Below are positions 13,270 through 58,815 of a stretch of DNA of 64,000 bases, one piece after another. The notes beneath the pieces are model-generated. The model did not search any database. It had not been told where the DNA came from and was given only the letters and a program-made list of their open reading frames with translations. Made by a program: the position numbers and the translations under genes. Location: NCBI RefSeq assembly GCF_964213995.1, contig NC_135830.1, forward strand, positions 13,702,001 through 13,766,000, written 5' to 3'. Positions within the stretch are counted from its first letter, which is position 1, and each line of letters opens with the position of its first letter. This DNA is from Mustelus asterias (lineage: Eukaryota).

Positions 13270-13559
13270 ACATTTAGCTGCTGTTCCGTATTGGTCAAGG
13301 TACCAGTTCTGTATATTTATTTTCCTTGCACACGGCGGGATTTCTTCACATGGGCTTTGGTTTGAGAACCTCAGCACAATCTCACACCATAGCAGGCTCA
13401 CAAGGAAATTAAAAAAAATTCAATTGGTGACTATGCTTGCGGACACGCATTCAGAGGACCCCATGCCTTCAGACGACCTCCCACGTTGTGGGAGGCTCGG
13501 GAGGAATTTGCCCGTCCCCTTGCAGAGGTATCTGAATAATCGAAAGCCACAGACGAGCT

Positions 13560-15030
13560 GCCTGAAGATTGGAGGGTGGCAAATGCCGTGCTTTTGTTTA
13601 AACAGGGCTGCAGGGAAAAGCCTGGGAATTACAGGCCCGTGAGCCTCACATCTGTAGCGGATAGGTTGTTAGAAGGTAGTCTGAGAGATGGGATCTACAG
13701 GCATTTCGAGAGGCAAGGACTGATTAGAGACGGTCAGCGTGGCTGTGTGAGTGGAAAATCATGTCTCACTAATTTGATTGAGTTTTTTGAAGGGGTAACC
13801 AAGAAGGTCGATGAGGGCAGTGCAGTTGATGTTGTCTACATTGACTTTAGGAGGCATTTGACAAGGTACCGCATGGCAGGTTGTTGCATTAGGTTAAATC
13901 CCACGGAATTCAGGGTGAGGTAGCCAAATAGATACAAAATTAGCTGGACGACAGAAGACAGAGGGTGGTTGTCGAGCTTTGCTTTCAAATTGGAGGCCTG
14001 TGACCAGCGGTGTGCCTCAGTAATTGGTGCTGGTTACACTGTTATTTGTCATTTATATTAATGATTTAGATGAGAATTTAGGACGCATGATTAGTAAGTT
14101 TGCAGATGACACCAATATTGGAGGCATCGTGCACAGTGAAGAAGCTTATCGAGGATTGCAGCGGGATCTTGATCAATTGGGCCAGTGGGCTGACGAATGG
14201 GAGAGTTTATTTTACATAATGGTCGGAGTTTATTTTACATAAATGCGAGATGATGCATTTTGGTAGATCGAACCAGGACAAGACTTGCTCAGTTAATGGT
14301 AGGGCGTTGGTGAGAGTTATAGAAAAAGCATCTCGGATATAGTTCATCGCTCCTTCAAAGTGCACTCAGAGGTGGACAGTGGTGGAGAAGGCATTCAGCA
14401 TGCTTGGTTTCATTGGCCAGAACATTGAACACAAGAATTGGGACGTCTTGTTGAAGTTGTCCAAGACATTGGTAAGGCCATACTTGGAATACTGTGTACA
14501 GTTTTGGCCACCGTCTTATAGAAATTATAGTATTAAATTAGGAGTGCAGAAAAGATCTATGAGGATGCTGCCGGGACTTGACATTTTGAGATATAACGAG
14601 AGGCTGGATAGACTGGGACTTTTTTCTCTGGAGCGTCGAAGGCTGAGGAGTGATCTTATAGAAGTCTATAAAATAATGAGGGGCACAGATCAGCTAGATA
14701 GTCAATATATTTTCCCAAAAGTAGGAGAGTCTAAAACTAGATGGCATAGTTTTGAGGTGAGGGGGGAGAGATACAAAAGTGTCCAGATGGGCATTGTTTT
14801 CACACAGAGGGTCGTGAGTGTCTCGAACAAGTTGTCAGAGGTAATAGTAGAGGCGGGTACAAGTTTGTATTTTAAAAAGTGTTTAGACAGTTAAATGGGT
14901 AAGATTTCTATAGAGGGATATGGGCCCAATGCGGACAATTGGGACTAATTCAGTGTTTCAAAAAGGGGCGGCAGGGACAATTTGGGGCGTAGGGCCTATT
15001 TCCATGCTATGAACCTCTATGATTCTATAT
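13560..15030 (+). mobile_element. 5'-truncated, frameshifted CR1 (RT and C-terminus)
   Basis: GNYRPVSLTS, KSCLTNLIEFFE, ISKFADDT, LVRPYLEYCVQFW motifs; CTATGATTCTAT tail. Confidence 0.92.
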
Positions 15031-18074: not shown

Positions 18075-18243
18075 NNNNNNNNNNNNNNNNNNNNNNNNNN
18101 NNNNNNNNNNNNNNNNNNNNNNNNNNNNNNNNNNNNNNNNNNNNNNNNNNNNNNNNNNNNNNNNNNNNNNNNNNNNNNNNNNNNNNNNNNNNNNNNNNNN
18201 NNNNNNNNNNNNNNNNNNNNNNNNNNNNNNNNNNNNNNNNNNN
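18075..18243. other. Assembly gap (169 N)
   Basis: Run of N at the position where paralogous units carry a (CA)n/(CT)n microsatellite. Confidence 0.99.
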
Positions 18244-18728: not shown

Positions 18729-18974
18729 TGGTTTTCTTTGCTCAAGCCGATGATGGGTTTGCTCAAGGATATTTTATTTAAAATTCTCAGCAAGCGGAAT
18801 TTTAAACACTGAGTAAGTTTCAGAAAATTGCACTGCAATCACATTGCAGATGATGCAGCGAATGACCCTCCTGGTGTCATTGCATCTGTCCAGAGGACGA
18901 CTGCTCAAGAATACAAAACGCTCAGACACAGAATCCCTACAGTGCGGTCGGGAGCCACTCGGCCCATCGAGCAG

Positions 18975-20900
18975 AGAACATAGAACACAGAACAGTACAG
19001 CACAGAACAGGCCCTTCGGCCCACGAAGTTGTGCCGAGCTTTATCTGAAACCAAGATCAAGCTATCCCACTCCCTGTCATCCTGGTGTGCTCCATGTGCC
19101 TATCCGATAACCGCTAAAATGTACCTAAAGTTTCTGACTCCACTATCACTGCAGGCAGTCCATTCCACACCTTAACCACTCTCTGAGTAAAGAACCTACC
19201 TCGGGCATCCTTCCTATATCTCCCACCATGAACACTATAGTTATGCCCCCTTGTAGTAGCTCCATCCACCCGAGAAAATAGTCTTCGAACGTTCACTCTA
19301 TCTATCCCCTTCATCATTTTATAAACCTCTATTAAGTCTCCCCTCAACCTCCTCCGCTCCAGAGAGAACAGCCCTCGCTCCCTGAACCTTTCCTCATAAG
19401 ACCTACCCTCAAAACCAGGCACCATGCTGGTAAATCTCCTTTGCACTCTTTCCAGCGCTTCCACATCCTTCTTATAGTGAGGTGACCAGAACTGCACACA
19501 ATATTCCAAATGTGGTCTCACCAAGGTCCTGTACAGTTGCAGCATAACCCCACGGCTCTTAAACTCCAAACCCCTGTTAATAAAAGCTGACACACTGTAG
19601 GCCTTCTTCAAAGCTCTATCCACTTGAGCGGCAACCTTCAGAGATCTGTGGATGTGGACCCCAAGATCTCTCTGTTCCTCCACAGTCTTTGGAACCCTAC
19701 CTTTCACCCTGTAATCCACATTTAAATTTGTCCTACCAAAATGAATCACCTCACATTTATCAGGGTTAAACTCCATCTGCCATTTTTCAGCCCAGCTTTG
19801 CATCCTATCTATGTCTCTTTGCAGTCTACAAGAGCCCTCCACCTCATCCACTACTCCACCAGTCTTCGTGTCATCAGTAAATTTACTGATCCACCCTTCA
19901 GCCCCCTCCTCTCGGTCATTAATAAAAATCACAAATAGCAGAGGACCAAGCACTGATCCCTGCGGCACTCCGCTAGCAACCTGCCTCCAGTCCGAAAATT
20001 TTCCATCCACCACCACCCTCTGTCTTCGATCAGATAGCCAGTTACCTATCCAATCGGCCAACTTTGCCTCTATCCCACATCTCCTTACTTTCATCATAAG
20101 CCGACGATGGGGGACCTTATCAAGCACCTTACGAAAATCCATGTATATGACATCAACTGCCCTACCTCCATCAACACACTTAGTTACGTTCTCAAAAAAT
20201 TCTATCAAATTTGTGAGGCACGACTTGCCCTTCACGAATCTGTGCTGACTATCCGGATTAATCCGCATCTTTCTAAATGTTCGTAAATCCCATCCCTAAG
20301 GACCTTTTCCATCAACTCACCAACCACCGAAGTAAGACTTACCGGCCTATAATTACCAGAGTCATTTGTATTCCCTTTCTTAAACAGAGGAACAACATTC
20401 GCCACTCTCCAGTCCTCTGGCACCATCCCCGTGGACAGTGAGGACCCAAAGATCAAAGCCAAAGGCTCTGCAATCTCATCCCTTGCCTCCCAAAGAATCC
20501 TAGGATGTATTTCATCAGGCCCAGGGGACTTATCGACCTTCAGTTTATTCAAAACTGCTAGTACATCCTCCCTCCAAACATCTACTTCCTCCAGCCTATT
20601 AGCCTGTAACACCTTCTCTTCCTTAAAAACATGGCCCCTCTCCTTAGTGAACACTGAAGAAAAGTATTCATTCATCACCTCTCCTCTCTCTACTGACTCC
20701 ATTCACAATTTTCCACTACTGTTCTTGACTGGCCCTAACCTCACCCTGGTCATTCTTTTATTCCTCACATAAGAGTAAAAAGCCTTGGGGTTTTCCTTGA
20801 TCAGACCTGCCAAGGACTTCTTATGCCCCCTCCTAGCTCTCCTGAGCCCCTTTTTCAGCTCATTCCTTGCTAACTTGTAACCCTCAATCGAGCCATCTGA
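18975..20900 (-). mobile_element. 5'-truncated CR1 with near-intact RT, inserted within a SINE
   Basis: ORFs 19114-20268 and 20232-20702 (one frameshift) carry GVPQGSVLGP and KFTDDT; tail at about 18976. Confidence 0.95.
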
Positions 20901-25565: not shown

Positions 25566-27080
25566 AAGGTTACGTTTAAACTTCCGGCAACAAGTTGGAT
25601 GGAAATGAAGCTTTGGGGAGGAGACAAATATTTTAGATTAATGAACAAGACGATTTCGTTACGGAGCGGGAGAAGTGGAAAGAAAAGGACCTAATTGAAA
25701 AAGCTGAAAAAGTTATAAGTGTTGATGTTCGAAGTGGTGAATGGGAATTTGGGTTTTTATTACCAGGGGAATGAAGTGCAAGAATCAAGAAGTCTGCCAC
25801 AATTGGAATCTGTTTTTTGTGAGACCACAGCTGCAATACTGTATGCAGTTTTGATCTCCGCGATGCAGAACTGATAGACTTGCATTGGAGGTCGTCGCGG
25901 GAATGTTCAAAAGATTGGATCCTGAGATGAGGGAGTTGTCCCATGATGAAAGGCTGAATAAATTGAGTGTTAATTATCTGGAGTCAGACGAAAGAGAGGT
26001 TATTGTTTTCGCTGGTCCGGGAATCTAAAAGACGGAGACACAGTCTCAGGATGTGGGGCTGATCATTTAGAACTGGGTCAGCTGGTATATCAGAGTGTTG
26101 GTTCAGAATTGATGGGCCACATGTCCTGATCCTGCTTTGCAGGGACACTATGATAGGAATAGAATTAATAGCGTCGATTTCAAATAAATTAGACTAATAA
26201 CATCAGTCCTGTGCATACCATAAAACCGATTGAAATTCTCAGTAATTGATGCTGTGATTCTAGATATCGAAATGTAACCCACTATCACACCGAGTGAATC
26301 CACTGTCCGTTCAAATGTCGATCAGTGAAATTGTAATCATCTTCCGCTATGGAATATGTGGGAACTGAGTCAATAAACAGACTCCACACAAAAAAAAACC
26401 AGGAAGTGCCAATTCCTCTTACAACTTCAAACCTTTTGTTATTTTCTGTACCATTTACCATGGAGATTTATACAGTCAGTGAACAGAGATTTCGATGGTA
26501 AAAACGTGTTCACACACTCCGGGTACATAACCACAGTGACGCACACAGAGGAGCAAACACAAATATAGACAGTGAACGTGACAGACGCTGGAGGATCGAG
26601 AAAGGCGGAGGCTTGACGCTCAGTTGTCGAGCATCTGACGACACATCTAGAGGTTCCTTGTCCAATTCGTGGTATCCTCTTCAGTATTTCACTGGACTTT
26701 TTATCAATTACGACTGTCGTTCATTGGCTGGAAAATTCTTTGTGACATCCGCTGGTCGGAAGAGGCTCTATATAAATGCAAGACTGTCTGTCTTTAATCA
26801 TCTTCAATCCCAGTCCTCTGGTTACTGACTGCCAGCAGTGGAAACAGTTTGTCCCTATATGCTCTATCAAACGGCCTTTTTTCCATGTTAGCAGAAGTTT
26901 TTTAACCATTACATCAAAACAACACTGCGGAGGTAAAGCAGTCGAAGGTTTACATTTGTGAACTGTATCATCATTTGGTCTTCCTGTATCAAGTTTGGTG
27001 CAAGTAGAACTGGCGTCAAATTTGCAGAGAAATCACTTCCACTCTGATTTAGAATGTCACGCGTGGCTACAGTCGTCTCA

Positions 27081-27154
27081 TCCTCTGTGGCGCGATTGGC
27101 CAGCGAGCTTGGTTATTAACTGAAAGATTGGTGGTTCGCGAGCATCCAGCGATG
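27081..27154 (+). pseudogene. tRNA-Asn pseudogene
   Basis: CTCTGTGGCGCGATTGGCCAGCG...TTAACTGAAAGATTGGTGGTTCG. Confidence 0.65.
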
Positions 27155-31643: not shown

Positions 31644-31940
31644 GGCGGCACGGTAGCACGGTGGTTAGCATTGCTGCTTCACAACTCCCAGCTTGGGTCA
31701 CTGTCTGTGTGGAATTTGCGCATTCTTCTCGTGTCTGCGTGGGTTTCCTCTGGGTGCTCTGGTTTCCTGCCACAGTCCAAAGATGTGAGGTTGATTGGCC
31801 AAGCTAAAATTGTCCTGGGATGCGGAGGTGAGAGGGATTAGTGTGTAAATATGTAGGGATAATGGGGGTAGGGCCTGGGTGGCATTGGGGCGGTGCAGAC
31901 TCGATGGGCCGAATGGCCTCTTTCTGCACTGCAGGATTTC
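31644..31940 (+). mobile_element. HE1-like SINE
   Basis: GGCGGCACGGTAGCACGGTGGTTAGC head; CR1-like tail GATGGGCCGAATGGCCTCTTTCTGCACTG. Confidence 0.85.
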
Positions 31941-32704
31941 TGTGAAGAAAGATTTTTTTTGGAATCTAAGGGAATGAAGGGCAATCGGGATACGTTTGGA
32001 AATTGATGTTGATTCCTGGGATTCGTCATGATCTCCTTAAATTGTGGAGGAGACTCCATGGGACATGGGAGCCAATCCTACTCCATTAATTCCGTTCCCT
32101 GCAGCACCAGATCTGATAGGGATCACCTCTGTTAAAAGCGTCGGAAGTGTTCTGAGGCATTGAATTCGAGGCAGCAGCATTTGTGGGGGAAAGTGATCAA
32201 ATGTTGCAAATGTCAGGTGTTCAGTTGATTTGCTTTAGACGTCATGAATACTTTTTCTCGAACATGTTATTACGAAACTTTAATGCAGTAGGAAGTATCA
32301 TTATTCATTTTGACAGGAAAAACCAGCAGAGACAATGTAATATCAATTGCTGTGGGCAAAAGATGGGCTTCTGGAGCCAGTCTAGTTGTTTCTCCAGTGA
32401 ACCGGATCTGCTTGCCCTGAGGTCATCACCGTGTTTCTGTAGTTCGGTGGTTATCACAAGAGCCAGGTTAATTCTGAAAATATCTGGTTAGAACGAGGAA
32501 TGATGGGACGTGTACATGATAGGATTTGAACTGCAGTTAGAAAATTCAAGTCCATCACCTTAATTCCTGGGCAGGGAATACAGTCTCACTGTTTGTAATC
32601 CTGCTATTTATATCATGATGCAAAGATGCCGGCGTTGGACTGGAGTGGGTACAGTAAGAATTCTCACAACACCAGGTTAAAGTCCAACAGGTTTAATTGG
32701 AATT

Positions 32705-39375: not shown

Positions 39376-41193
39376 GGCTGATGCATATTCCTTAAAACAT
39401 TAATTTATCCAGGAACCATCTGTCTTCTATTTTTATTTCAGACTTTTTATTCACCCAAAACAAGTTTCTCCTTGAAATTGTCATGTTTAGATCGAACACA
39501 AGTGAGTGCATCAGCCAATGAGCAGAGCGATTCCTGTTCGCTGGAACATGAAATCGACAGTGAGGTGAAATAGTCCCGCAAGCTGCTCATGTGGCACTTT
39601 CAGTTTCCAAAACCCACCAAACTCATCACTGTGGCTTCTGTGAAACTTGCAAGGTAACACACGGCAGGCATTAATCACGGAGAGCAACTGACACAAGTCA
39701 TTTGCTAAACACTATCATGTCGCTTCTCTTCCTGTTTCTGTCGCTGCTTCTCATCCAGCTCCCTCTGGCCGGTCAGCTCCCAGGGTCAATTAGCTGCTTG
39801 ATACAGACACAGACCGTTGGTGACAACGAGTTTTACCTGGAAAACAGAGTGTAAGACACACGGTGTTGAGAGGAGATGGTGTTTAGAAATGACAGTATAA
39901 AGAGACACAGATATATCATCTTCCTGATCCTCCCAGTTACTGATTACAGGAATGTACATAGTGCCAATTATCCACTGTCACCCTCTCCTTCCAGCCTTCA
40001 GCACGGAGTTACGTTTTGAAGTGTTTGAAGTCTTGCTACCGTTGTTCAGGGTTTTGTTGAGACCACATTTGGAATAGTGTGTGCAGTTTGGGTCTCCACA
40101 TTTCAGACAGAATGAAAGCAAAAATAATGAGGATGCTGGAAACTAAATCAAAAACAGCAAATGCCGCAAAATAACAACAGGTTTTCCAGCATCTGTGGAG
40201 AGAGGGTAACGTCAACGTTTTGAATGACGATGACACTTCGTCAGTGTAGGCTATACATTTATCGGAGTCGGTACAGCGAAGCTTCACTAGATTCTTCTCT
40301 GGGATGAGGGTGTATCCCTCAACGTCAGGGACCCGTGTTCAATTCCGGTCTCGTGTGACTGTTTGTGTGAAGTTTGCACGTTTTCCCCTTGTCTGTGCAT
40401 TTACTTCTGGCTCCGCTTTCCTGCCACGGTCCAAAGATCTGTGGGTTCGGTGGATTGGCCATGCTAAATTGCCTCTCAGTGTCAGAGGGACGAGCAAGGT
40501 GAATGTGTGGTTTGACGGGGATATAGTGTTGTTGGGATTGTTATTGGCATAGGCTTGGTGTACTGCAGGGATTCTCTGATTCTACGAGTTTGAAGGGTGG
40601 ATGCTGAGATAATATTCTCCTTGGTCCGGGAATCTAAAACACGGGATACAATCTCACGATAAGGCGCTGATGATTTAGGTCTGAGGTGAGGAGAAATTGA
40701 ATCACTCAAACGAGAGCGAATCTTCGGAATTCTCTACGCCAGAGGCTTGTAGATGTTCCATCATTGAACACATTTCAGTCTGGGTTTGGCAGATTTCTGA
40801 TCTCTCCAACAATGACTGGGAACAGGAATATGGAATTGGAACAAATGCTCAGCCACAAATTACTGCTTCTATTCTAATTGTTAAGCTTAACAGTATAATG
40901 GATACATGTATATGTTATATGTAATATATTTGAAATCAAAAGTCATTAAATAACGTTGGCAACACCACAGCCGGTAACTTCAGAGATAATTTTTATGAGC
41001 GTCCACGGACCCATTGCCAACTGTTTGCGTTTGAATGCTGATGTGAGAAAACACTAAGAGCTCCGTCCCTGTGTGGTCTCGAACCACAAACATAGAACAT
41101 AGAACATAGAACATAGAACATTACAGCGCAGAACAGGCCCTTCGGCCCACGATGTTGCACCGACCAGTTAAAAAAAAACTGTGACCCTCCAAC

Positions 41194-44013
41194 CTAAACC
41201 AATTTCTTTTCGTCCATGAACCTATCTACGGATCTCTTAAACGCCCCCAAACTAGGCGCATTTACTACTGATGCTGGCAGGGCATTCCAATCCCTCACCA
41301 CCCTCTGGGTAAAGAACCTACCCCTGACATCGGTTCTATAACTACCCCCCCTCAATTTAAAGCCATGCCCCCTCGTGCTGGATTTCTCCATCAGAGGAAA
41401 AAGGCTATCACTATCCACCCTATCTAAACCTCTAATCATCTTATATGTTTCAATAAGATCCCCTCTTAGCCGCCGCCTTTCCAGCGAAAACAATCCCAAA
41501 TCCCTCAGCCTCTCCTCATAGGATCTCCCCTCCATACCAGGCAACATCCTGGTAAACCTCCTCTGCACCCTCTCCAAAGCCTCCACATCCTTCCTGTAAT
41601 GTGGGGACCAGAACTGCACACAGTACTCCAAGTGCGGCCGCACCAGAGTTGTGTACAGTTGCATCATAACGCTACGACTCCTAAATTCAATCCCCCTACC
41701 AATAAACGCCAAGACACCATATGCCTTCTTAACAACCTTATCTACTTGATTCCCAACTTTCAGGGATCTATGCACACATACACCTAGATCCCTCTGCTCC
41801 TCCACACTATTCAAAGTCCTCCCGTTAGCCCTATACTCAACACATCTGTTATTCCTACCAAAGTGAATTACCTCACACTTCTCCGCATTAAACTCCATCC
41901 GCCACCTCTCGGCCCAACTTTGCAACCTGTCTAAGTCTTCCTGCAAACTACGACACCCTTCCTCACTGTCTACCACACCACCGACTTTGGTGTCATCAGC
42001 AAATTTGCTAATCCACCCAACTATACCCTCATCCAGATCATTAATAAATATTACAAACAGCAGTGGCCCCAAAACAGATCCCTGAGGTACACCACTTGTA
42101 ACCGCACTCCATGATGAATATTTACTATCAACCACCACCCTCTGTTTCCTATCCGCTAGCCAATTCCTGATCCAATTTCCTAGATCACCCCCAATCCCAT
42201 ACATCTGCATTTTCTGCAGAAGCCTACCATGGTGAACCTTATCAAACGCCTTACTAAAATCCATATATACCACGTCCACTGCCTTGCCCCCATCCACCTC
42301 CTTGGTCACTTTCTCAAAAAACTCAATAAGGTTAGTAAGGCACGACCTACCTGCCACAAAACCATGCTGACTATCACCTATCAATTCATTACTCTCCAAA
42401 TAACTATAAATCCTATCCCTTATAATTTTTTCCAACATCTTGCCGACAACAGAAGTGAGACTCACCGGTCTATAATTCCCGGGGAAGTCTCTGTTCCCCT
42501 TCTTAAACAATGGGACAACATTCGCTAACCTCCAATCTTCTGGTACTATACCAGAGGCCAACGACGACCTGAAGATCAGAGCCAGAGGCTCTGCAATCAC
42601 TTCTCTTGCCTCCCAGAGAATCCTTGGATAAATCCCATCCGGACCAGGGGATTTATCTATTTTCAGACCCTCCAGAATATCCTGCACATCCTCCTTATCA
42701 ACTGTAATACTGTCTATTCTACTCCCTTGCAACCCAGTGTCCTCCTCAGCTATATTCATGTCCCCTTGCGTGAACACCGAAGAGAAATATTGGTTCAATG
42801 CTTCACCAATCTCCTCCGGTTCCACACATAACTTCCCTCTGCCATCTATAACTGGCCCTAAACTTGCCCTAACCAACCTTCTGTTCTTGACATACCTATA
42901 GAACGCCTTAGGATTCTCTTTAACCCTATCCGCCAAAGTCTTCTCATGTCCCCTTTTAGCCCTTCTAAGCTCGCTCTTCAACTCCCTCTTAGCTAATCTA
43001 AAGCTTTCTAGTGCACTACCCGAGTGCTCACGTCTCATCCGAACATAAGCCTCCTTTTTCTTTTTAACCAACAAAGAAACTTTTTTGGTGCACCACGGTT
43101 CCCTAGCCCTACCAATTCCTCCTTGCCTGACAGGGACATACCTATCACAGACTCGCAGTAGCTGCTCCTTGAAAAAACTCCACATGTCGGACGTTCCCAG
43201 TCCCTGTAATCTCCTAGTCCAACCTATGTTTCCTAATTCTCTCCTAATAGCCTCATAATTACCCTTCCCCCAGCTAAAACCACTGGCCCGAGGTTCATGC
43301 CTATCCCTTTCCATCACTAAGGTGAACGTAACCGAATTGTGGTCACTATCACCAAAATGCACACCAACTTCCAAGTCTAGCACCTGGTCTGGCTCATTTC
43401 CCAGCACCAGATCCAATATAGCCTCACCTCTAGTTGGCCTGTCTACATACTGAGTCAAAAAACCTTCCTGCACGCTTTGAACAAAAACTGACCCCTCTAA
43501 CGAGCTAGAGCTATAACAATTCCAGTCAATATTAGTCAAGTTAAAATCCCCCATATCAATTGCCCTATTACTTTCACTCCTAAGCAGGATTGACTCCGCA
43601 ATCCTTTCCTCAACCTCTCTAGAACTTTTAGGAGGTCTATAAAAGACTCCCAACAGGGTGACCTCTCCTCTCCTATTTCTAATCTCCGCCCATACTACCT
43701 CAACAGATAAGTCCTCATCAAACCTCCTCTCTGACACTGTGATACAATCTCTGACCAATAATGCTACCCCTCCCCCTCTTCTACCTCCTTCCCTACTTCG
43801 ACTAAAACATTTGAACCCCGGGACCTGCAGCATCCATTCCTGCCCCTGCTCTATCCATGTCTCTGAAATAGCCACAACATCGAAGTCCCAGGTACTGATC
43901 CACGCTGCAAGTTCACCCACTTTATTGCGAATACTCCTGGCATTGAAGTATACACATTTCAAACCCTGCTCCACCCCACCTCTGCAATGCCGTGCATTGC
44001 AGTCCCCATCCAT
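41194..44013 (-). CDS. CR1 ORF2 (APE endonuclease + reverse transcriptase), 939 aa
   Basis: YFNARS, ISETW, GDFN and SDH endonuclease motifs; GVPQGSVLGP and FADD RT motifs. Confidence 0.97.
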   Translation of the reverse strand: MDGDCNARHCRGGVEQGLKCVYFNARSIRNKVGELAAWISTWDFDVVAISETWIEQGQEWMLQVPGFKCFSRSREGGRRGGGVALLVRDCITVSERRFDEDLSVEVVWAEIRNRRGEVTLLGVFYRPPKSSREVEERIAESILLRSESNRAIDMGDFNLTNIDWNCYSSSSLEGSVFVQSVQEGFLTQYVDRPTRGEAILDLVLGNEPDQVLDLEVGVHFGDSDHNSVTFTLVMERDRHEPRASGFSWGKGNYEAIRRELGNIGWTRRLQGLGTSDMWSFFKEQLLRVCDRYVPVRQGGIGRAREPWCTKKVSLLVKKKKEAYVRMRREHSGSALESFRLAKRELKSELRRAKRGHEKTLADRVKENPKAFYRYVKNRRLVRASLGPVIDGRGKLCVEPEEIGEALNQYFSSVFTQGDMNIAEEDTGLQGSRIDSITVDKEDVQDILEGLKIDKSPGPDGIYPRILWEAREVIAEPLALIFRSSLASGIVPEDWRLANVVPLFKKGNRDFPGNYRPVSLTSVVGKMLEKIIRDRIYSYLESNELIGDSQHGFVAGRSCLTNLIEFFEKVTKEVDGGKAVDVVYMDFSKAFDKVHHGRLLQKMQMYGIGGDLGNWIRNWLADRKQRVVVDSKYSSWSAVTSGVPQGSVLGPLLFVIFINDLDEGIVGWISKFADDTKVGGVVDSEEGCRSLQEDLDRLQSWAERWRMEFNAEKCEVIHFGRNNRCVEYRANGRTLNSVEEQRDLGVCVHRSLKVGNQVDKVVKKAYGVLAFIGRGIEFRSRSVMMQLYTTLVRPHLEYCVQFWSPHYRKDVEALERVQRRFTRMLPGMEGRSYEERLRDLGLFSLERRRLRGDLIETYKMIRGLDRVDSDSLFPLMEKSSTRGHGFKLRGGSYRTDVRGRFFTQRVVRDWNALPASVVNAPSLGAFKRSVDRFMDEKKLV

Positions 44014-44063
44014 GCATCCCTCACTTTCAGCCCCACTACTCAGGATCCCTCCCCCCCCCCGAA

Positions 44064-44993
44064 TCAGTTTAAACCTCCCTGCATGGCCTTAGCAAATTTA
44101 CCCCCCAGGATATTGGTCCCCTTCTGATTAAGGTGTAGACCATCCTTCTCATAGAGGTCACACCTTCCCCAGTACGAGCCCCAATTGCTTAAGTACCTGA
44201 ACCCCTCCCTCCTGCACCATCCCCTCAGCCATGAATTCAAACCTTCCCTCTCCCTATTCCTCTCTAAACTATCCCGTGGTACAGGCAAGAGTCCAGAGAT
44301 AACCACTCTGTCAGTCTTGGCCTTTAGTTTCCACCCCAACTCCATAAATCCCTGCCTAATATCCCCTTCCCCTATCCTCCCTATGTCGTGTGTCCCCACA
44401 TGTACAATAACTTGTGGTTTATCTCCCTCCCCCCTAAGAGTCCTGAATACCCTGTCAGACACATCCCGGACCCCAGCCCCTGGTAGGCAACACACCAACC
44501 CTGAGTCCCTACCTTTAGTTCCGACCCTCCTATCTGTCCCCTTAATTGTGGAGTCCCCAATCACAAGGCCCAGTCTTTTACAGCCCCTAACCACCTGAGC
44601 TTTCTCACTCGGCTCACCCCCAGAGATCTGCTCTCTATGCTCAGTTGATTCCTCCTCAACTGTAGCCTCCAGCACCGAAAACCTATTATGGAGGGGAACC
44701 GCCCCAGGGGATTGTCTTCCCGATTGCTTCTTACCCCTCCTCCTGGCATTGACCCAAGCCTCATTTCCAGGAGTTACTATTTCTCTATAACTCCTATCAA
44801 CTTCCACCTCCGCCTCCCGAATTATGCGGAGTTCCTCTACCTCCCCCTCCAGCTCCTTTACACGCTCCTCCAGAAGCTGCAATCTAATGCACTTCTTACA
44901 ACTAAAATCTCCTGAAACACTACTGGATTTCCTCACCACATACATCCCACAGGAGATGCAGCATACTGCCTGAACTGCCATCCCTGAAGCCAT
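44064..44993 (-). CDS. CR1 ORF1 (zinc finger/leucine zipper + SGNH esterase-like), 309 aa
   Basis: CISC...CKKC, coiled coil LLEERVKELEGEVEEL, IGDS, HVGTHD, DGLHLN; probable start MASGMAVQ at 44993. Confidence 0.93.
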   Translation of the reverse strand: MASGMAVQAVCCISCGMYVVRKSSSVSGDFSCKKCIRLQLLEERVKELEGEVEELRIIREAEVEVDRSYREIVTPGNEAWVNARRRGKKQSGRQSPGAVPLHNRFSVLEATVEEESTEHREQISGGEPSEKAQVVRGCKRLGLVIGDSTIKGTDRRVGTKGRDSGLVCCLPGAGVRDVSDRVFRTLRGEGDKPQVIVHVGTHDIGRIGEGDIRQGFMELGWKLKAKTDRVVISGLLPVPRDSLERNREREGLNSWLRGWCRREGFRYLSNWGSYWGRCDLYEKDGLHLNQKGTNILGGKFAKAMQGGLN

Positions 44994-45957
44994 TACCAGC
45001 AAGAAAAAAAGAAAACAAAAAACAAACCTTTCGGTTAACATCCGAACGCGCTGACGAATTGCACCACAGAGACTGAGACAGCAACTTTGCACGATATTCT
45101 AAACCAGGGTGTCAATGACTTCAATTATATTTCTACTGAACCTGTTCCAGAACTACAGCACGACCGTTTACAATCCTATATAAGTCTCTTTGGTTATTTT
45201 GATCCCGTAGTATTGCTGTGATGTAGCGGTTATTCCCTTTCTCCTACGGACATGCAGGTAAAATGAATCCATGTCTCTCATCACAAGAATTCAACGGGAG
45301 AGAAGGGAACTGACCACCAGAAGCCCAAGGAACCAATACTTTCCATTCAAACATCAATAACACCATTCACAGCTGCACCTCTGTCCAAATATTGTGATCC
45401 ATTTCCGTCAGAATTTGTTCCAAGATTAAATATTTACTGTTTCTTCCCCCTCATTTTGAAATGAGATTCGCTTCAATATACAACACAAATGGAATTGCAA
45501 ACCTGACGGACAAACAGTGGGAAACAAGTCACTGGGTAACACAAATCCCTGGGTGCTGATTTCCAGATTCACAACACTCAGCTTTTCACTCAAATGGAGG
45601 AATTTATCACTGAAAAGTTTTGGAAAGTTGGTCTGAATATTGTTTGTGGCTCACTCGTGTATTGTGTAAATGCCGCTCGAAGGTTCAGTGGGCGGGGTTT
45701 AAGCTGCCTTTTTTTTTCCTGAACCTGTGCTTGGTGTATTGGGATGTTTGAACCAACTCAGATCTTTTGTCCCAGAGATGTGCAGTAACCCACAGGTTGA
45801 AGCTGCAGTCGTCGCCGTCTGCTGGCAGCGAATGGGTGAATGGAGAGTTCGGGGTGAAATCCTGCTGCGTGTCCCTGTCTCACTCACTGTGGATATGTGG
45901 AAGAGAGAATCATTGATGGGGTTGTTTCGCCGACTGAAATGTGCTTTTCATAAAAAA

Positions 45958-46288
45958 TCATAGAAACCTTACTGTACAGAAAGAGGCCATTCGGCCCATC
46001 GAGTCTGCACCGACCTCAATCCCACCCAGGCCCTACCCCCATATATTTTACCCGCTAACCCCTGTAATCTACGCATCCCACGACACGAAGGGGCAATTTT
46101 AGCATGGCCAATCAACCAAACCCGCACATCTTTGGACTGTGGGAGGAAACCGGAGCACCCGGAGAAAACCCACGCAGACACGAGAAGGATGTGCAAACTC
46201 CACACAGACAGTGACCCAAGCCGGGAATCGAACCCAGGTCGCTGGAGCTATGAAGCAGCAGTGCTAACCACTGTGCTACCGTGCCGCC
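45958..46288 (-). mobile_element. Full-length HE1-like SINE
   Basis: GGGCGGCACGGTAGCACAGTGGTTAGCACTGCTGC head with B box GGTTCGATTCCC; CR1-like tail. Confidence 0.9.
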
Positions 46289-46362
46289 CTTTTGTGTGGC
46301 TGTGAACGGAGGTGTCGCTGGTGGAGCCATTAATAATATGACGCAAAACAGAAAAAGGTACT

Positions 46363-47265: not shown

Positions 47266-49710
47266 TTACATTTGTACTTTAAAAAACTTCCATGTTTTTT
47301 GGTTTACAAAAGTGTCGATAACAGCATGTAAATCAACAGATCGAAGCATGTCTGATTCAATGTGCATGAGTGCCAGATGACTAGGTTTCTCATCGCTCAT
47401 TGTTGAGCGCAAATAGATTTTGATCCTCTTCAGTGCCGAAAATGAACACTCACCTGAACAGTTAGTGATCATTAAGGACAGATAAATTCTAAAGCAAATG
47501 TATGTATTTGGAAACACCTCGTGCAGTCGATCTCTTGCCAGAGCTCGATACATCCCAGTGACAGTGACATCATCATCGGATTGTCCTTGAATGTACTTCT
47601 GAAAGTGGACGTGCTCTTCCACAAAGGCCAAGTCAAAGTCGTCCGGATAAACTTGTATGAGGGTATTCGCTGCCTTTTTAAGTGCGTCGACATCAATATT
47701 GCAAATACGAGAAAGAAATCCAAATCGCTTGGACACAGATTTATATGCTTCAGTGCGTTTTTTAAGCTCTGCTGATAATTTGTCTAAGATCGGTAAGTAC
47801 ACGTTAATTTTGAAACTCTGGCGAGGTGAAAAATCTGTTGCCTGTGCTTTGTTTTCCTGGTACTAACTTTTCGCTTCCTTTGCGTTTCTTCTTTGTGAAC
47901 TGATGTCGCAGTCTTTGCAATGCCTTCTTGCTTAAAGTTCTCAAATGAGTCATTGATCCGGAGGTCTAAGATATAGGCCTCCAAAGACTGCAAAAGTCTC
48001 ACGCCTTCGTTAAGATATATTTCTGGGTTTTGTAAATTCAAGCTAGTTTTGTGGAATCGCTTCAAAATTGTTGCCCAAACGCTGAGAAGTATTCCATACT
48101 CCAGAGATTCCATCTTGCTCACAAGACCTCTCGCTTCTTGTCGCGTGTTTGACTTTTCATCTGCATTGTCAGCAATGCTTTCCAATTGTGATTTCACTTT
48201 CTCGTATCCCTGATTGAGGGCGGCCGCAGCACTTGCGTGAGCAGACCACCGAGTATCACTAAGTCTCTTCACAACTGCAAGATTCTTTCCAAGCTCACCC
48301 ACAAGTATTTCCCATCGGTGGGTTGAAGCACTGAAGAAATTGTACAACTGTTCAACAAAATCAAAAAAAGCAGCAGCTTTCGGAACACAATCCACTGCTG
48401 AATGACCGACAAGGTCCAACGAGTGAGCAACGCAAGGAATATAGTCAGCTACTATATTTCTCTCCTGTATTTTAGCTTGAAGACCATTACACTTGCCACT
48501 CGTGTTGCAGGCGTTGTCGTATGATTGACCTCTGCAGTTCTCTAAGTCTATTTTATCTGTTTCTAAAAACATCAGAATACTCTCGGCAAGTTGTTCACCA
48601 CTGTGACCTCTGCAATTCAGAAATATGACGCATCTTTCAATAGGACCACTCTCACGCACATATCGAAAAATGCAAGACAGCCGATCCGCGTGTGAAATAT
48701 CAGGGGATGAATTCACAGATATTGAAAACTATTTGGCTTCTTTGAGTTCCGAAATAATTTTCTCTGACACCTTTTGTCCAAGTATTTAAATCAGCTCATC
48801 GCATACTGTGGATGAAAGGTAGGAAACAGAGCCTTTACCCTTATTTCATTCATTTCAATATGAGTTGCCAAAAAAAGGATCGAATTGCGCTAACAATTCT
48901 AGTGTCCCTAGAAAATTGCCATTGTTTGGTGAACCACTACACTCGTTGTGTCCCCTAAAGGCTAGTCCCCGCTCAGCAAGAAATTTAATTGTAGCAACAA
49001 CCCTTTCCAGAAGTGCTTTCATGTAATCACGTTCTGACTGGTATTGTCGAGTAATCAAGCGGTTTACACATTCAATACCTCGAGACCTTGTAGTGAGGGC
49101 AATGGTCGCATCCCAATGGCTTTGGCTGTTTTCATGACTTTCGAATCTTTGACTTGCATTTTTCCAGTCAGAGAAGCCATGCTTCGAAAAAGCATGGTCT
49201 TCACTTGAAAACAGTTTGCAGTTAAAACAGAATGCCTTACCTGTGCTTGGAGATTAGCACAGCCAACTTCTCCTGATTTTCTCGCCATTTGTAAGGGAGC
49301 GGTAAAACATGGACTTACTAAAGTAACGTTTCTGTTTAGCGTCATATTTGATAGACTTCACAACACTGGCATTCATGTTCCAACAGACTTCGCTCCCTGT
49401 CTTTAACCAGTATACGGTGATGTCTTCTGTAATTTTGTCAGGCGGCAGGCCACGTGCCCAAATCACTCTCCATCGACTTCGACGACTTGTCTGCGATTTC
49501 TTCATCATCGGATCCGGAATGAACTTCACGTTGCGAATCTTCGCCTACTTTTCCATCGTCCACATCACCGTCCACATCATCAAGTACTGCTTCATTTGCT
49601 GGCTTAAAAACTTGTCAAGCTTGCATGTATTCCTTCGTAGACTTTCTTGTACTCTCTTGGTCTCTTTCCTTTTTTGTGCTCTGCTTTTATGTTTGTATTC
49701 AATAGTAGCC
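47266..49710 (-). pseudogene. hAT transposase pseudogene (ORF pieces 49254-49529, 48855-49058, 47784-48716, 47266-47802)
   Basis: FLAERGLAFRGH, GNFLGTLELLA, RGQSYDNA, CVAHSL, TRWS, and the dimerisation motif ECSFSALKRIKIYLRSTM. Confidence 0.9.
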
Positions 49711-56798: not shown

Positions 56799-57125
56799 GG
56801 CGGCACGGTAGCACAGTGATTAGCACTGCTACTTCACAGCTCCAGGGACCTGGGTTCGATTCGCGGCTCGGGTCACTGTCTGTGTGGAGTTTGCACCTTC
56901 TCCTCGTGTCTGCGTGGGTTTCATCCGGGTGCTCCGGTTTCCTCCCACAGTCCAAAGATGTGCGGGTTAGGTTGATTGACCATGCTAACATTGCCCCTTA
57001 GTGTCCTGAGATGCGTAGGTTAGAAGGATTAGCGGGTAAAATATGTAGGGATACGGGGGTAGGGCCTGGGTGGGATTGTGGTCGGTGCAGGCTCTTTCTG
57101 CAATGTAGGGTTCTATGATTCTATG
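56799..57125 (+). mobile_element. HE1-like SINE inserted in the RSS spacer of V segment 4
   Basis: GGCGGCACGGTAGCACAGTG head and CTATGATTCTATG tail; nonamer GGTTTTTGT at 56782-56790 on one side, V end on the other. Confidence 0.88.
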
Positions 57126-57585: not shown

Positions 57586-58448
57586 GGTTCGTGATTGGAC
57601 ATGAACATGTTTCAGATGTGCTGGTGCTTCTAGTCTTATATCTAAAAATAAACTCAGATCAGAGGCATCTTGCAATTATTGCGAAATTGTTCCTCAGTGC
57701 CGCGATTGGCTTGTCTCCCTGAGATGATGTCAGCTGTTGCCCAATCATCTAAATGTTTTATACGGCTGAACCACATCAATCACATTCCACCCCTGGTTGC
57801 TTTTACCTGGCGTTCTCTCTCTTCCTCGGTTTCACTTTGTCACTCATTCTGTCTCTACCTCGGTTGAACTTGCCTTCCTTCGAACTCTTTCCTGAGGAAG
57901 ATCATTCTCTCTAATGAAAGTGAAAGATCAAATAAATGTTTTTAAATCAGGTATTATTAAGGGGCATGAGCATAAATGAAAGGTTACTGTCTTAATTACA
58001 CTGGGCGAACGTTGATACCCAACTTCATGTCGAGATGCAGTTCCAGTGGGACTGCTCTTGTACCGTTAAGGTACTTAATTAACCCAGTCAATATTTTGTA
58101 CCCAGAAAATGTGAAACAACTGAGTGTGCCTATGACATTATTTCACTTTAAAAACGTGTCCCCTGACAGCGAGGCATCTGATACAGAAAGGTTAAGTGTA
58201 CAAATAGATGATGGCATTCACTTGGAAGATCTGTGGGTTGTGTGAATGGCATCGCAAAATGGTTGGATTTGATCCAGAAGTAATCTGACCGCCAAAAGTC
58301 AAATTTCTCGACAGTGGCAATCATTGACCTCAGTGAGGGAAAACCATTCAGATGAGGCACAATGTCACGTTCACTATCTGTGCATTTTTTATGAAATTCA
58401 ACTCCATGTGCTTTCCTGACACCAAACTCTTGACTATCGACCTGTGGC

Positions 58449-58487
58449 AGCATTTGTATGAGGCCCAATAGACCCTCGCTCATTGTG
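58449..58487 (-). promoter_or_regulatory. 23-RSS of V segment 5
   Basis: CACAATG + 23 nt + ACAAATGCT. Confidence 0.88.
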
Positions 58488-58815
58488 GTTCTCAGTGCAC
58501 AATAATACACGGCGCTGTCTGTCATCTTCAAATCTTTCATGGACAAGTGAAAAGTGTTTTGTGCTTGCATGTGATTCCCGCTGAAGAGCTCAAGGCCGGG
58601 GGCCGTCTTCTTGTACCCGTAACTATCGGCTCTGAGCAGATACTGAGGAGCATGGAGTGAAGACTGCCGATACCAGAACAGGCCATATACTCTAGCTAAA
58701 CTCTGTACAGGGTAACTGCAGGGTATTGCTGAACCTTCACCCCCTGTTGCTTCAACTCTTGGTTCTGATTGGGACACTGAATCTCAATTACTCATCTCTG
58801 AATATAAACAATAGA

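Follow-up and report, generated by a model that had tools for sequence, protein, structure and literature searches.

A conserved slippery heptamer at the ORF1-ORF2 junction of esterase-type CR1 elements points to probable programmed -1 frameshifting in a vertebrate LINE

How the second open reading frame (ORF2) of a long interspersed nuclear element (LINE) is translated has been called an open and important question, in a paper that makes no mention of frameshifting (PMC3894237). The question arises directly at a locus in a 64,000-nucleotide (nt) stretch of Mustelus asterias DNA (contig NC_135830.1, positions 13,702,001 to 13,766,000 of the forward strand), hereafter the window, in whose coordinates all positions are given. 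Its minus strand carries, at ~45100-41089, an intact two-ORF LINE in which ORF1 is followed by ORF2 and by a 3' end made of a 7-nt tandem repeat. Domain order, the 3' tandem repeat and likeness by eye to rows labelled CR1 identify it as an esterase-type CR1 LINE. In most vertebrates CR1 predominates among the retrotransposon groups (PMC13343379), and it makes up ~12% of the chicken genome (PMC11835228). An initial annotation of this sequence suggested that a slippery site couples ORF1 to ORF2. Conservation of the heptamer, of its phase and of the adjacent stop supports that suggestion, and we think it likely that esterase-type CR1 LINEs make ORF2 through programmed -1 frameshifting, as a Gag-Pol-like ORF1-ORF2 fusion.

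Re-reading of the minus strand showed that ORF1 ends GGA GGT TTA AAC TGA, with TTTAAAC (44073-44067) in the X_XXY_YYZ phase of ORF1 and the stop codon immediately after it. This is the sole in-phase canonical heptamer within the entire ORF1. ORF2 lies in the -1 frame, which the initial annotation had described as open to the ORF2 ATG at 44013; it is in fact open from 44088, through the heptamer and that first ATG, on to the ORF2 stop at 41194. Runs of G follow the heptamer at offsets 6 (G10), 17 (GGG), 32 (GGGG) and 46 (GGG), as had also been described. A homopolymer error in G10 was considered and rejected, because the length of the run preserves the downstream register, with GGG at the +18 to +20 of relatives, and leaves the -1 frame leading into ORF2. 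Base composition gives p ~0.002 for finding a canonical heptamer at a single given position. TTTAAAC is common in the window (35 matches against 12.6 expected), so that the single copy is only suggestive and the case rests on conservation.

Conservation at the DNA level was assessed in consensus rows of the CR1 group from the supplement of PMC13343379, which show the first 400 nt of each element, a view outside which most junctions lie. Twenty rows, with 12 species codes from which the species names were read, contain a junction, and their hosts are chimaera, catshark, dogfish, stingray, sawfish, bowfin, halosaur, coelacanth, bullfrog, bearded dragon, alligator and crocodile. TTTAAAC followed by T is present in 19 of the 20; the remaining row begins within the motif, and none deviates. 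Because most of these rows had been retrieved using the motif itself, we examined control subsets, which overlap. Four of the 58 supplement parts, read whole, held 57 CR1 rows with eight junctions (seven full and one truncated, none deviating); an ORF1-anchored query gave TTTAAAC at 6/6 junctions; and a query with the downstream G motif described below gave it in 7/7 CR1 rows, plus two unrelated L2 rows. Six alternative-codon queries of the supplement produced seven matches, none of them at a CR1 junction. The stop at the equivalent place in relatives is TAA, TAG or TGA. In this element TTA encodes 14 of 107 Leu and AAC 8 of 40 Asn residues, and with that codon usage the heptamer would be expected ~0.9% of the time given the amino acids alone; its nucleotide conservation exceeds what the protein needs. 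Off the junction, TTTAAAC matched three L2/Rex1 rows and two 5' untranslated regions (UTRs) of spiny dogfish, SquAca_CR1-3 and -18, in which TTTAAACTAR with a G-rich stretch also stands ~130 nt before ORF1.

Some further rows and sources were inspected. AldAff_Crack-2 is labelled Crack, yet its first 400 nt look like the end of an esterase ORF1 that carries the junction motif of CR1, and it is possibly misclassified. The Suh 2014 supplement (PMC4316615), one of whose two files was searched, gave 16 motif matches, and the two passages viewed were not CR1 junctions. DNA of relatives was also sought in bacterial and archaeal genome contigs, where none of 46 and 48 pattern matches, respectively, was confirmed.

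The same junction can be followed in proteins. Our ORF1-like set of 190 sequences comprised 35 close homologues, four fused gene models, the best 150 of 7,448 profile hits and the window's own ORF1; 141 reach the end of the profile, and after nine with tails longer than 25 amino acids (aa) were set aside, 132 were analysed. Among these intact ends, 87 read Leu-Asn-stop, nine Gly-Asn-stop and 36 something else. Terminal tripeptides compatible with a canonical heptamer occur in 80/115 cluster representatives at 90% identity, 42/76 at 70%, 31/55 at 60% and 10/16 at 50%, compared with 3.6-3.9% at internal positions. The residue preceding Leu-Asn is of 11 kinds. Amino acids with no codon ending in T (K, Q, E, M or W) stand there in only one of 87 sequences, against 33/87 and 26/87 at the two positions further upstream. 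Gln precedes Gly-Asn in 9/9 cases, and G_GGA_AAC needs Gln there. Both biases are the outcome that U_UUA_AAC and G_GGA_AAC would force. Distant esterase ORF1s (P0091, P0106, P0107, P0110, P0111, P0114, P0124, P0146, P0169 and P0154) end in Gln-Gly-Asn or Ser-Lys-Asn, ends known from protein alone that are compatible with other canonical slippery heptamers.

The terminal motif tracks the stop codon rather than the protein fold. This follows from the variable tails (26 of 96 sequences ending in Leu-Asn or Gly-Asn carry 1-16 residues past the end of the profile match, and the motif remains next to the stop codon), from the ZfL2-1 esterase, whose solved structure lacks Leu-Asn, and from the structure model, in which the last ORF1 helix spans residues 286-299 and residues 303-305 are low-confidence coil. 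We also built a tree of 121 esterase domains with the last 10 aligned residues left out; its root is a midpoint, and we therefore claim no order of events. Every named shark, ray, turtle and snake sequence falls on one side of a 100/94 branch, where 60 of 64 rows end in Leu-Asn. The other side holds 17 rows ending in Leu-Asn, nine in Gly-Asn, one in Lys-Asn and 30 others. Among those others is a ZfL2-1-like clade of seven rows, with a named member from Astyanax (a teleost), which carries the signature in 0/7.

The -1 reading can be seen in read-through proteins, in which the junction is crossed in the ORF2 frame by way of an indel in the copy or an intron drawn by the predictor. Phe-Lys-Leu stands at the junction in seven of eight such gene models from ray, turtle, stork and crane (Hypanus P0033, Chrysemys P0092, Mycteria P0039-41 and P0197, Grus P0136). 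Phe-Lys-Leu in one frame and Leu-Asn-stop in the other together imply T TTA AAY T. Five read-through proteins are open for 95-108 codons up to the endonuclease motif, and one catshark consensus row likewise has, by eye, a linker open and in frame to the endonuclease. The positions of Met in the linker differ between stork and crane. A search for longer proteins returned only four stork gene models and no natural single-ORF fusion family; one model, P0038, skips the junction. The initial annotation had proposed that CR1 junctions be compared for a phase-conserved TTTAAAC, and such conservation is found in the DNA of chimaera, sharks, rays, coelacanth, frog, lizard and crocodilians, and at the protein level also in turtle and birds. 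The initial annotation had treated the signal as a property of this CR1; it appears to belong to the whole jawed-vertebrate CR1 lineage rather than to one copy.

The slip, its rate and the fusion are what we infer from this anatomy and from the conservation of heptamer, phase, stop and G motif. Most ribosomes would finish ORF1 and halt at the stop after U_UUA_AAC, giving abundant ORF1 protein (ORF1p). A minority would slip back one base, tRNA-Leu moving from UUA to UUU and tRNA-Asn from AAC to AAA, and in bypassing the stop would read on through the linker, the endonuclease and the reverse transcriptase to give a fusion of ~1,266 aa (309 + 957). The outcome would be a high ratio of ORF1p to ORF2 protein (ORF2p). 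With the coiled coil that it carries, the enzyme could enter ORF1p assemblies in the manner of Gag-Pol, with no protease to release it. U_UUA_AAC and G_GGA_AAC are listed among the heptamers most prone to shifting on mammalian ribosomes (PMC5009743), and the G-rich motif, the adjacent stop or both may stimulate the slip.

Downstream of the heptamer, relatives keep GGG GAT/GAG GGG at +12 to +20, mostly with G at +11. The conserved form is GGGGG-A-T/A/G-GGG at about +11 to +20, and the G10-A-GGG of this copy lies in the same register. In the 20 consensus rows the motif is exact in seven, G-rich but shifted or cut in 11 and absent from two, and Gly-x-Gly is in register in seven of eight read-through proteins; the remainder of the linker varies freely in length and sequence. 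The initial annotation had suggested that the G runs could form a G-quadruplex. The 45 nt from 44060 are indeed the element's top 45-nt window in G4Hunter (1.67), on a strand that is G-rich as a whole and on which two other 25-nt windows score higher. A quadruplex is nevertheless not established: this copy has four G tracts with loops of up to 12 nt, and relatives conserve two tracts only. A G-quadruplex may act as stimulator in this copy, and with just two tracts kept in relatives, a linear G-rich motif is equally likely. Synthetic quadruplexes induce up to ~7% shifting at UUUAAAC with a best spacer of 6-8 nt (PMC3919603), and long loops or two-tier quadruplexes stimulate weakly (PMC3919603, PMC12710887). 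A stop close by matters at one umbravirus site (PMC5009743), and if the CR1 slip happens while the stop occupies the A site, the conserved tract would lie behind a spacer of 7 nt.

Several observations weigh against frameshifting as we propose it. No strong RNA structure was found in four stretches downstream of the site (folding z-scores +1.10 to -0.47; pseudoknots were not modelled), Rfam returned no family and one chance match (E 2.3), and a scan for long-range duplexes gave only bulged, unconvincing pairings. A perfect 9-bp hairpin with a 3-nt loop at 44002-43982 on the minus strand, just past the ORF2 ATG, was rejected as a stimulator, lying 64 nt from the site and hence too far away. Most linkers contain in-frame AUGs, and UAAUG overlaps the stop in 3/20 rows. 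Stops in the -1 linker were seen by eye in CalMil-1b, SquAca-17a, SquAca-22, ScyCan-14 and PogVit-2; because these rows are noisy and their coding parts also carry indels, they speak neither for nor against an open linker. The openness of linkers is itself partly a matter of ascertainment, since read-through models were found through being open, and the crane model Grus P0209 reads Tyr-Lys-Leu at the junction. The Gln-Gly-Asn group is known from protein only, any ORF2 behind it being hypothetical, and 30 of 57 rows on the other side of the tree lack the terminal signature. Finally, the search profile was made from 25 sequences that all end in Leu-Asn and may slightly favour such hits, and relatives share ancestry, so the counts are not independent events.

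The best surviving alternative, which we nonetheless regard as unlikely, is termination-reinitiation, in which ribosomes would terminate at the end of ORF1 and begin again on the -1 codon that overlaps its stop, yielding free ORF2p that includes the linker. The start would be UAAUG as in SART1, or a near-cognate GUG or AUU, with the G-rich motif as a restart helper. Stop-start coupling has its precedent in SART1 (PMC3708506, PMC3894237) and would likewise account for an open linker. The three rows with UAAUG are ScyCan-1a, SquAca-17a and SquAca-6c, in the first of which it is, by eye, the only in-frame AUG ahead of the endonuclease; GUG or AUU occupies the stop-overlap codon in several shark rows, and this copy has AUU. 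UAAUG is missing, however, from 17/20 rows, including from this copy, which reads UGAUU, and the overlap codon is GGU, AGC or GCU in crocodilian rows and encodes Asp or Gly in bird proteins. Stop-start reinitiation also fails to explain the amniote junctions, why the heptamer is conserved at the nucleotide level, and why some distant relatives have switched to Gln-Gly-Asn. The two processes may coexist.

Less probable still is reinitiation or scanning to a downstream AUG in the manner of L1 (44013 in this copy), with the heptamer as a relic or serving another job. L1 ORF2 is thought to begin by an unusual AUG-independent initiation (PMC5009743). An in-frame AUG does lie 50 nt past the stop, and P0192 (81% identical) has Met at an equal distance from the endonuclease. 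The ATG at 44013 has a weak context, with T at -3 and an out-of-frame ATG 4 nt earlier. AUG positions are not common to families, as the stork and crane linkers and P0193 illustrate, and chance alone would place an ATG in 62% of stretches of 41 codons and in 90% of those of 95 codons. Moreover, the conserved motif sits upstream of the linker AUGs, and a relic would not stay fixed at synonymous sites across jawed vertebrates.

A non-translational role is very unlikely: a C-terminal Leu-Asn needed by ORF1p (the Leu could lengthen the hydrophobic face of the last helix) would leave TTA, AAC and the preceding T unfixed, and the motif is missing from the ZfL2-1 esterase; an internal promoter, for which TTTAAA is TATA-like and TTTAAACTAR recurs in the two dogfish 5' UTRs, would need neither codon phase nor stop adjacency; and a splice acceptor for an ORF2 mRNA, near which gene predictors place splices in bird models, has no pyrimidine tract ahead of it on this G-rich strand.

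Frameshifting at the CR1 junction can be set beside known systems. With retroviral gag-pol and coronavirus or arterivirus 1a-1b it shares an X_XXY_YYZ heptamer that closes the first ORF and a polymerase in the -1 frame (PMC5009743). In these viruses the -1 shift sets the ratio of structural to enzymatic protein (PMC5009743), and we propose the same for CR1. Unlike these viruses, CR1 is a non-LTR (lacking long terminal repeats, LTRs) element without a protease and has its stop abutting the heptamer; where viral sites are concerned it differs further in that no strong hairpin was found and the candidate stimulator is a short G-rich tract. The nsp2 site of PRRSV (the virus behind porcine reproductive and respiratory syndrome), trans-activated by nsp1beta and a poly(C)-binding protein, uses the motif CCCANCUCC ~11 nt downstream and no RNA structure (PMC5009743). 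The position of ~11 nt fits CR1, but the CR1 motif is G-rich and not C-rich, and the likeness is one of spacing only. Synthetic quadruplex cassettes share with CR1 the heptamer UUUAAAC and the spacing, G10 starting after 6 nt against their best spacer of 6-8 (PMC3919603), but these are compact three-tier quadruplexes whereas CR1 conserves only two G-tracts. A 2016 review states that no natural use of quadruplex-stimulated frameshifting is known (PMC5009743).

Among non-LTR elements frameshifting is not unheard of. For Dictyostelium TRE5-A and TRE3-A a figure legend states that a -1 frameshift is required for ORF2 (PMC5911963), in Drosophila HeT-A the shift lies within gag (PMC5009743), and a +1 frameshift has been suggested for Paramecium non-LTR elements; TRE5-A, TRE3-A and HeT-A belong to other clades and hosts than CR1 and are compared through those statements alone. 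SART1 and mammalian L1, like CR1 as we envisage it, have a bicistronic RNA and a low ORF2 output (PMC3894237, PMC3708506, PMC5009743), but yield free ORF2p by initiation or reinitiation and not the fusion that the signal in CR1 leads us to expect. Canonical vertebrate CR1 with an esterase ORF1 (PMC13343379; ZfL2-1, PMC3905857) has the same domain order and 3' tandem repeat as the present element, and the word frameshift does not occur in the text of either paper.

We searched the full-text literature and found no slippery site or frameshift described for CR1; the original, subscription-only CR1 papers may mention an overlap. The junction signal is real, conserved and probably functional, and would be a case of a known mechanism in a setting for which it seems not to have been reported. 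Textbooks describe fusion by frameshift for LTR elements and viruses and not for vertebrate LINEs, and its use here would surprise specialists. The conserved slippery site makes the ORF2 question directly testable with a 60-nt cassette and predicts an ORF2 protein larger than the annotated one. It would also redefine an intact CR1, for which an ORF2 AUG would be unnecessary and an open linker essential, and may provide the first case in nature of a G-rich or quadruplex stimulator of frameshifting.

A wider version of the proposal, which we put forward tentatively and consider rather doubtful, is that all jawed-vertebrate esterase-type CR1 elements and some distant relatives (with G_GGA_AAC or A_AAA_AAC) make their enzyme only as an uncleaved fusion, the stop and a structure-free G motif at +11 driving the slip. 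The motif would then act without Watson-Crick structure, either as a natural quadruplex or by binding ORF1p itself or a host protein that recognises G tracts. If so, natural frameshift stimulators would gain a new class, and a LINE would have an assembly plan like that of Gag-Pol, kept for >400 million years; the split of the jawed vertebrates is >400 million years old.

The features of the element are collected in Table 1. ORF1 has the make-up of an esterase-type CR1 ORF1, with an N-terminal cysteine motif, a coiled coil and an SGNH esterase. The match of PF13472 (E 1.4e-7, 32.6 bits) lies 0.3 bits below the curated cut-off of 32.9, and the ORF1 profile matches the ZfL2-1 ORF1 esterase 4C1B with E 1.4e-36. 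The protein search gave 35 close homologues of ORF1, the named ones mostly from sharks and rays, which by itself would make an elasmobranch the probable host; one sequence, P0012, was deposited as an SGNH hydrolase of Pseudomonas aeruginosa but is a CR1 ORF1 of the shark type, probably host contamination. ORF2 combines an APE endonuclease with a reverse transcriptase, and the 3' tandem repeat completes the CR1 pattern.

Table 1. Features of the CR1 element and its ORF1-ORF2 junction (window coordinates).
Feature	Position	Strand	Basis or remark
CR1 ORF1	44064..44993	-	309 aa counted from first ATG; second ATG at 44981
ORF1 N-terminus: two CxxC pairs and long helix of coiled-coil type	44775..44981	-	alignment; predicted helix 29-69
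SGNH esterase domain, ORF1	44085..44570	-	Pfam PF13472 and profile match to 4C1B
Putative slippery heptamer U_UUA_AAC, final ORF1 codons	44067..44073	-	sequence; kept in relatives
ORF1 stop TGA abutting heptamer; CTG (Leu) in -1 frame	44064..44066	-	sequence
G-rich motif G10-A-GGG, +7 to +20, candidate stimulator	44047..44060	-	sequence
Extra G runs GGGG and GGG; could complete a three-tier quadruplex with long loops	44018..44034	-	conservation not seen
35-codon linker from shift site to endonuclease, -1 frame open	43963..44067	-	sequence
First in-frame ORF2 ATG	44011..44013	-	50 nt past ORF1 stop
APE endonuclease domain, ORF2	43339..43950	-	Pfam PF03372, E 1e-15
Reverse transcriptase domain, ORF2	41848..42501	-	Pfam PF00078, E 4.8e-36
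Complete -1 frame after predicted shift, 957 codons and stop	41194..44067	-	sequence
3' UTR with terminal 7-nt tandem repeat, 4.7 copies	41089..41193	-	sequence

A target-site duplication and the exact 5' end of the element were looked for in the window, and neither was resolved. The region 5' of ORF1 (45022-45122) matches 27029-27132 of the window at 69%. No second ORF1/ORF2 junction was found in the window, where the other CR1 pieces are 5'-truncated or decayed. Two of these, 18965-20900 (minus strand) and 13477-14888 (plus strand), are 5'-truncated CR1 copies of other families with ~68-69% DNA identity to the intact element, and ~8264-9187 (plus strand) holds a decayed CR1 ORF1 remnant that ends just short of the junction. 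An assembly gap lies at 18075-18243.

Elsewhere in the window, 47266-48728 (minus strand) is a hAT transposase remnant with a C-terminal dimerisation domain and DUF4371. A repeat of ~300 nt at 45960-46290, which we take to be probably a short interspersed nuclear element, has copies at 56799-57094, 31644-31945 and other places. An immunoglobulin V-set domain (Pfam E 2e-12) is encoded at 58148-58783 on the minus strand and may mark an antigen-receptor or related locus.

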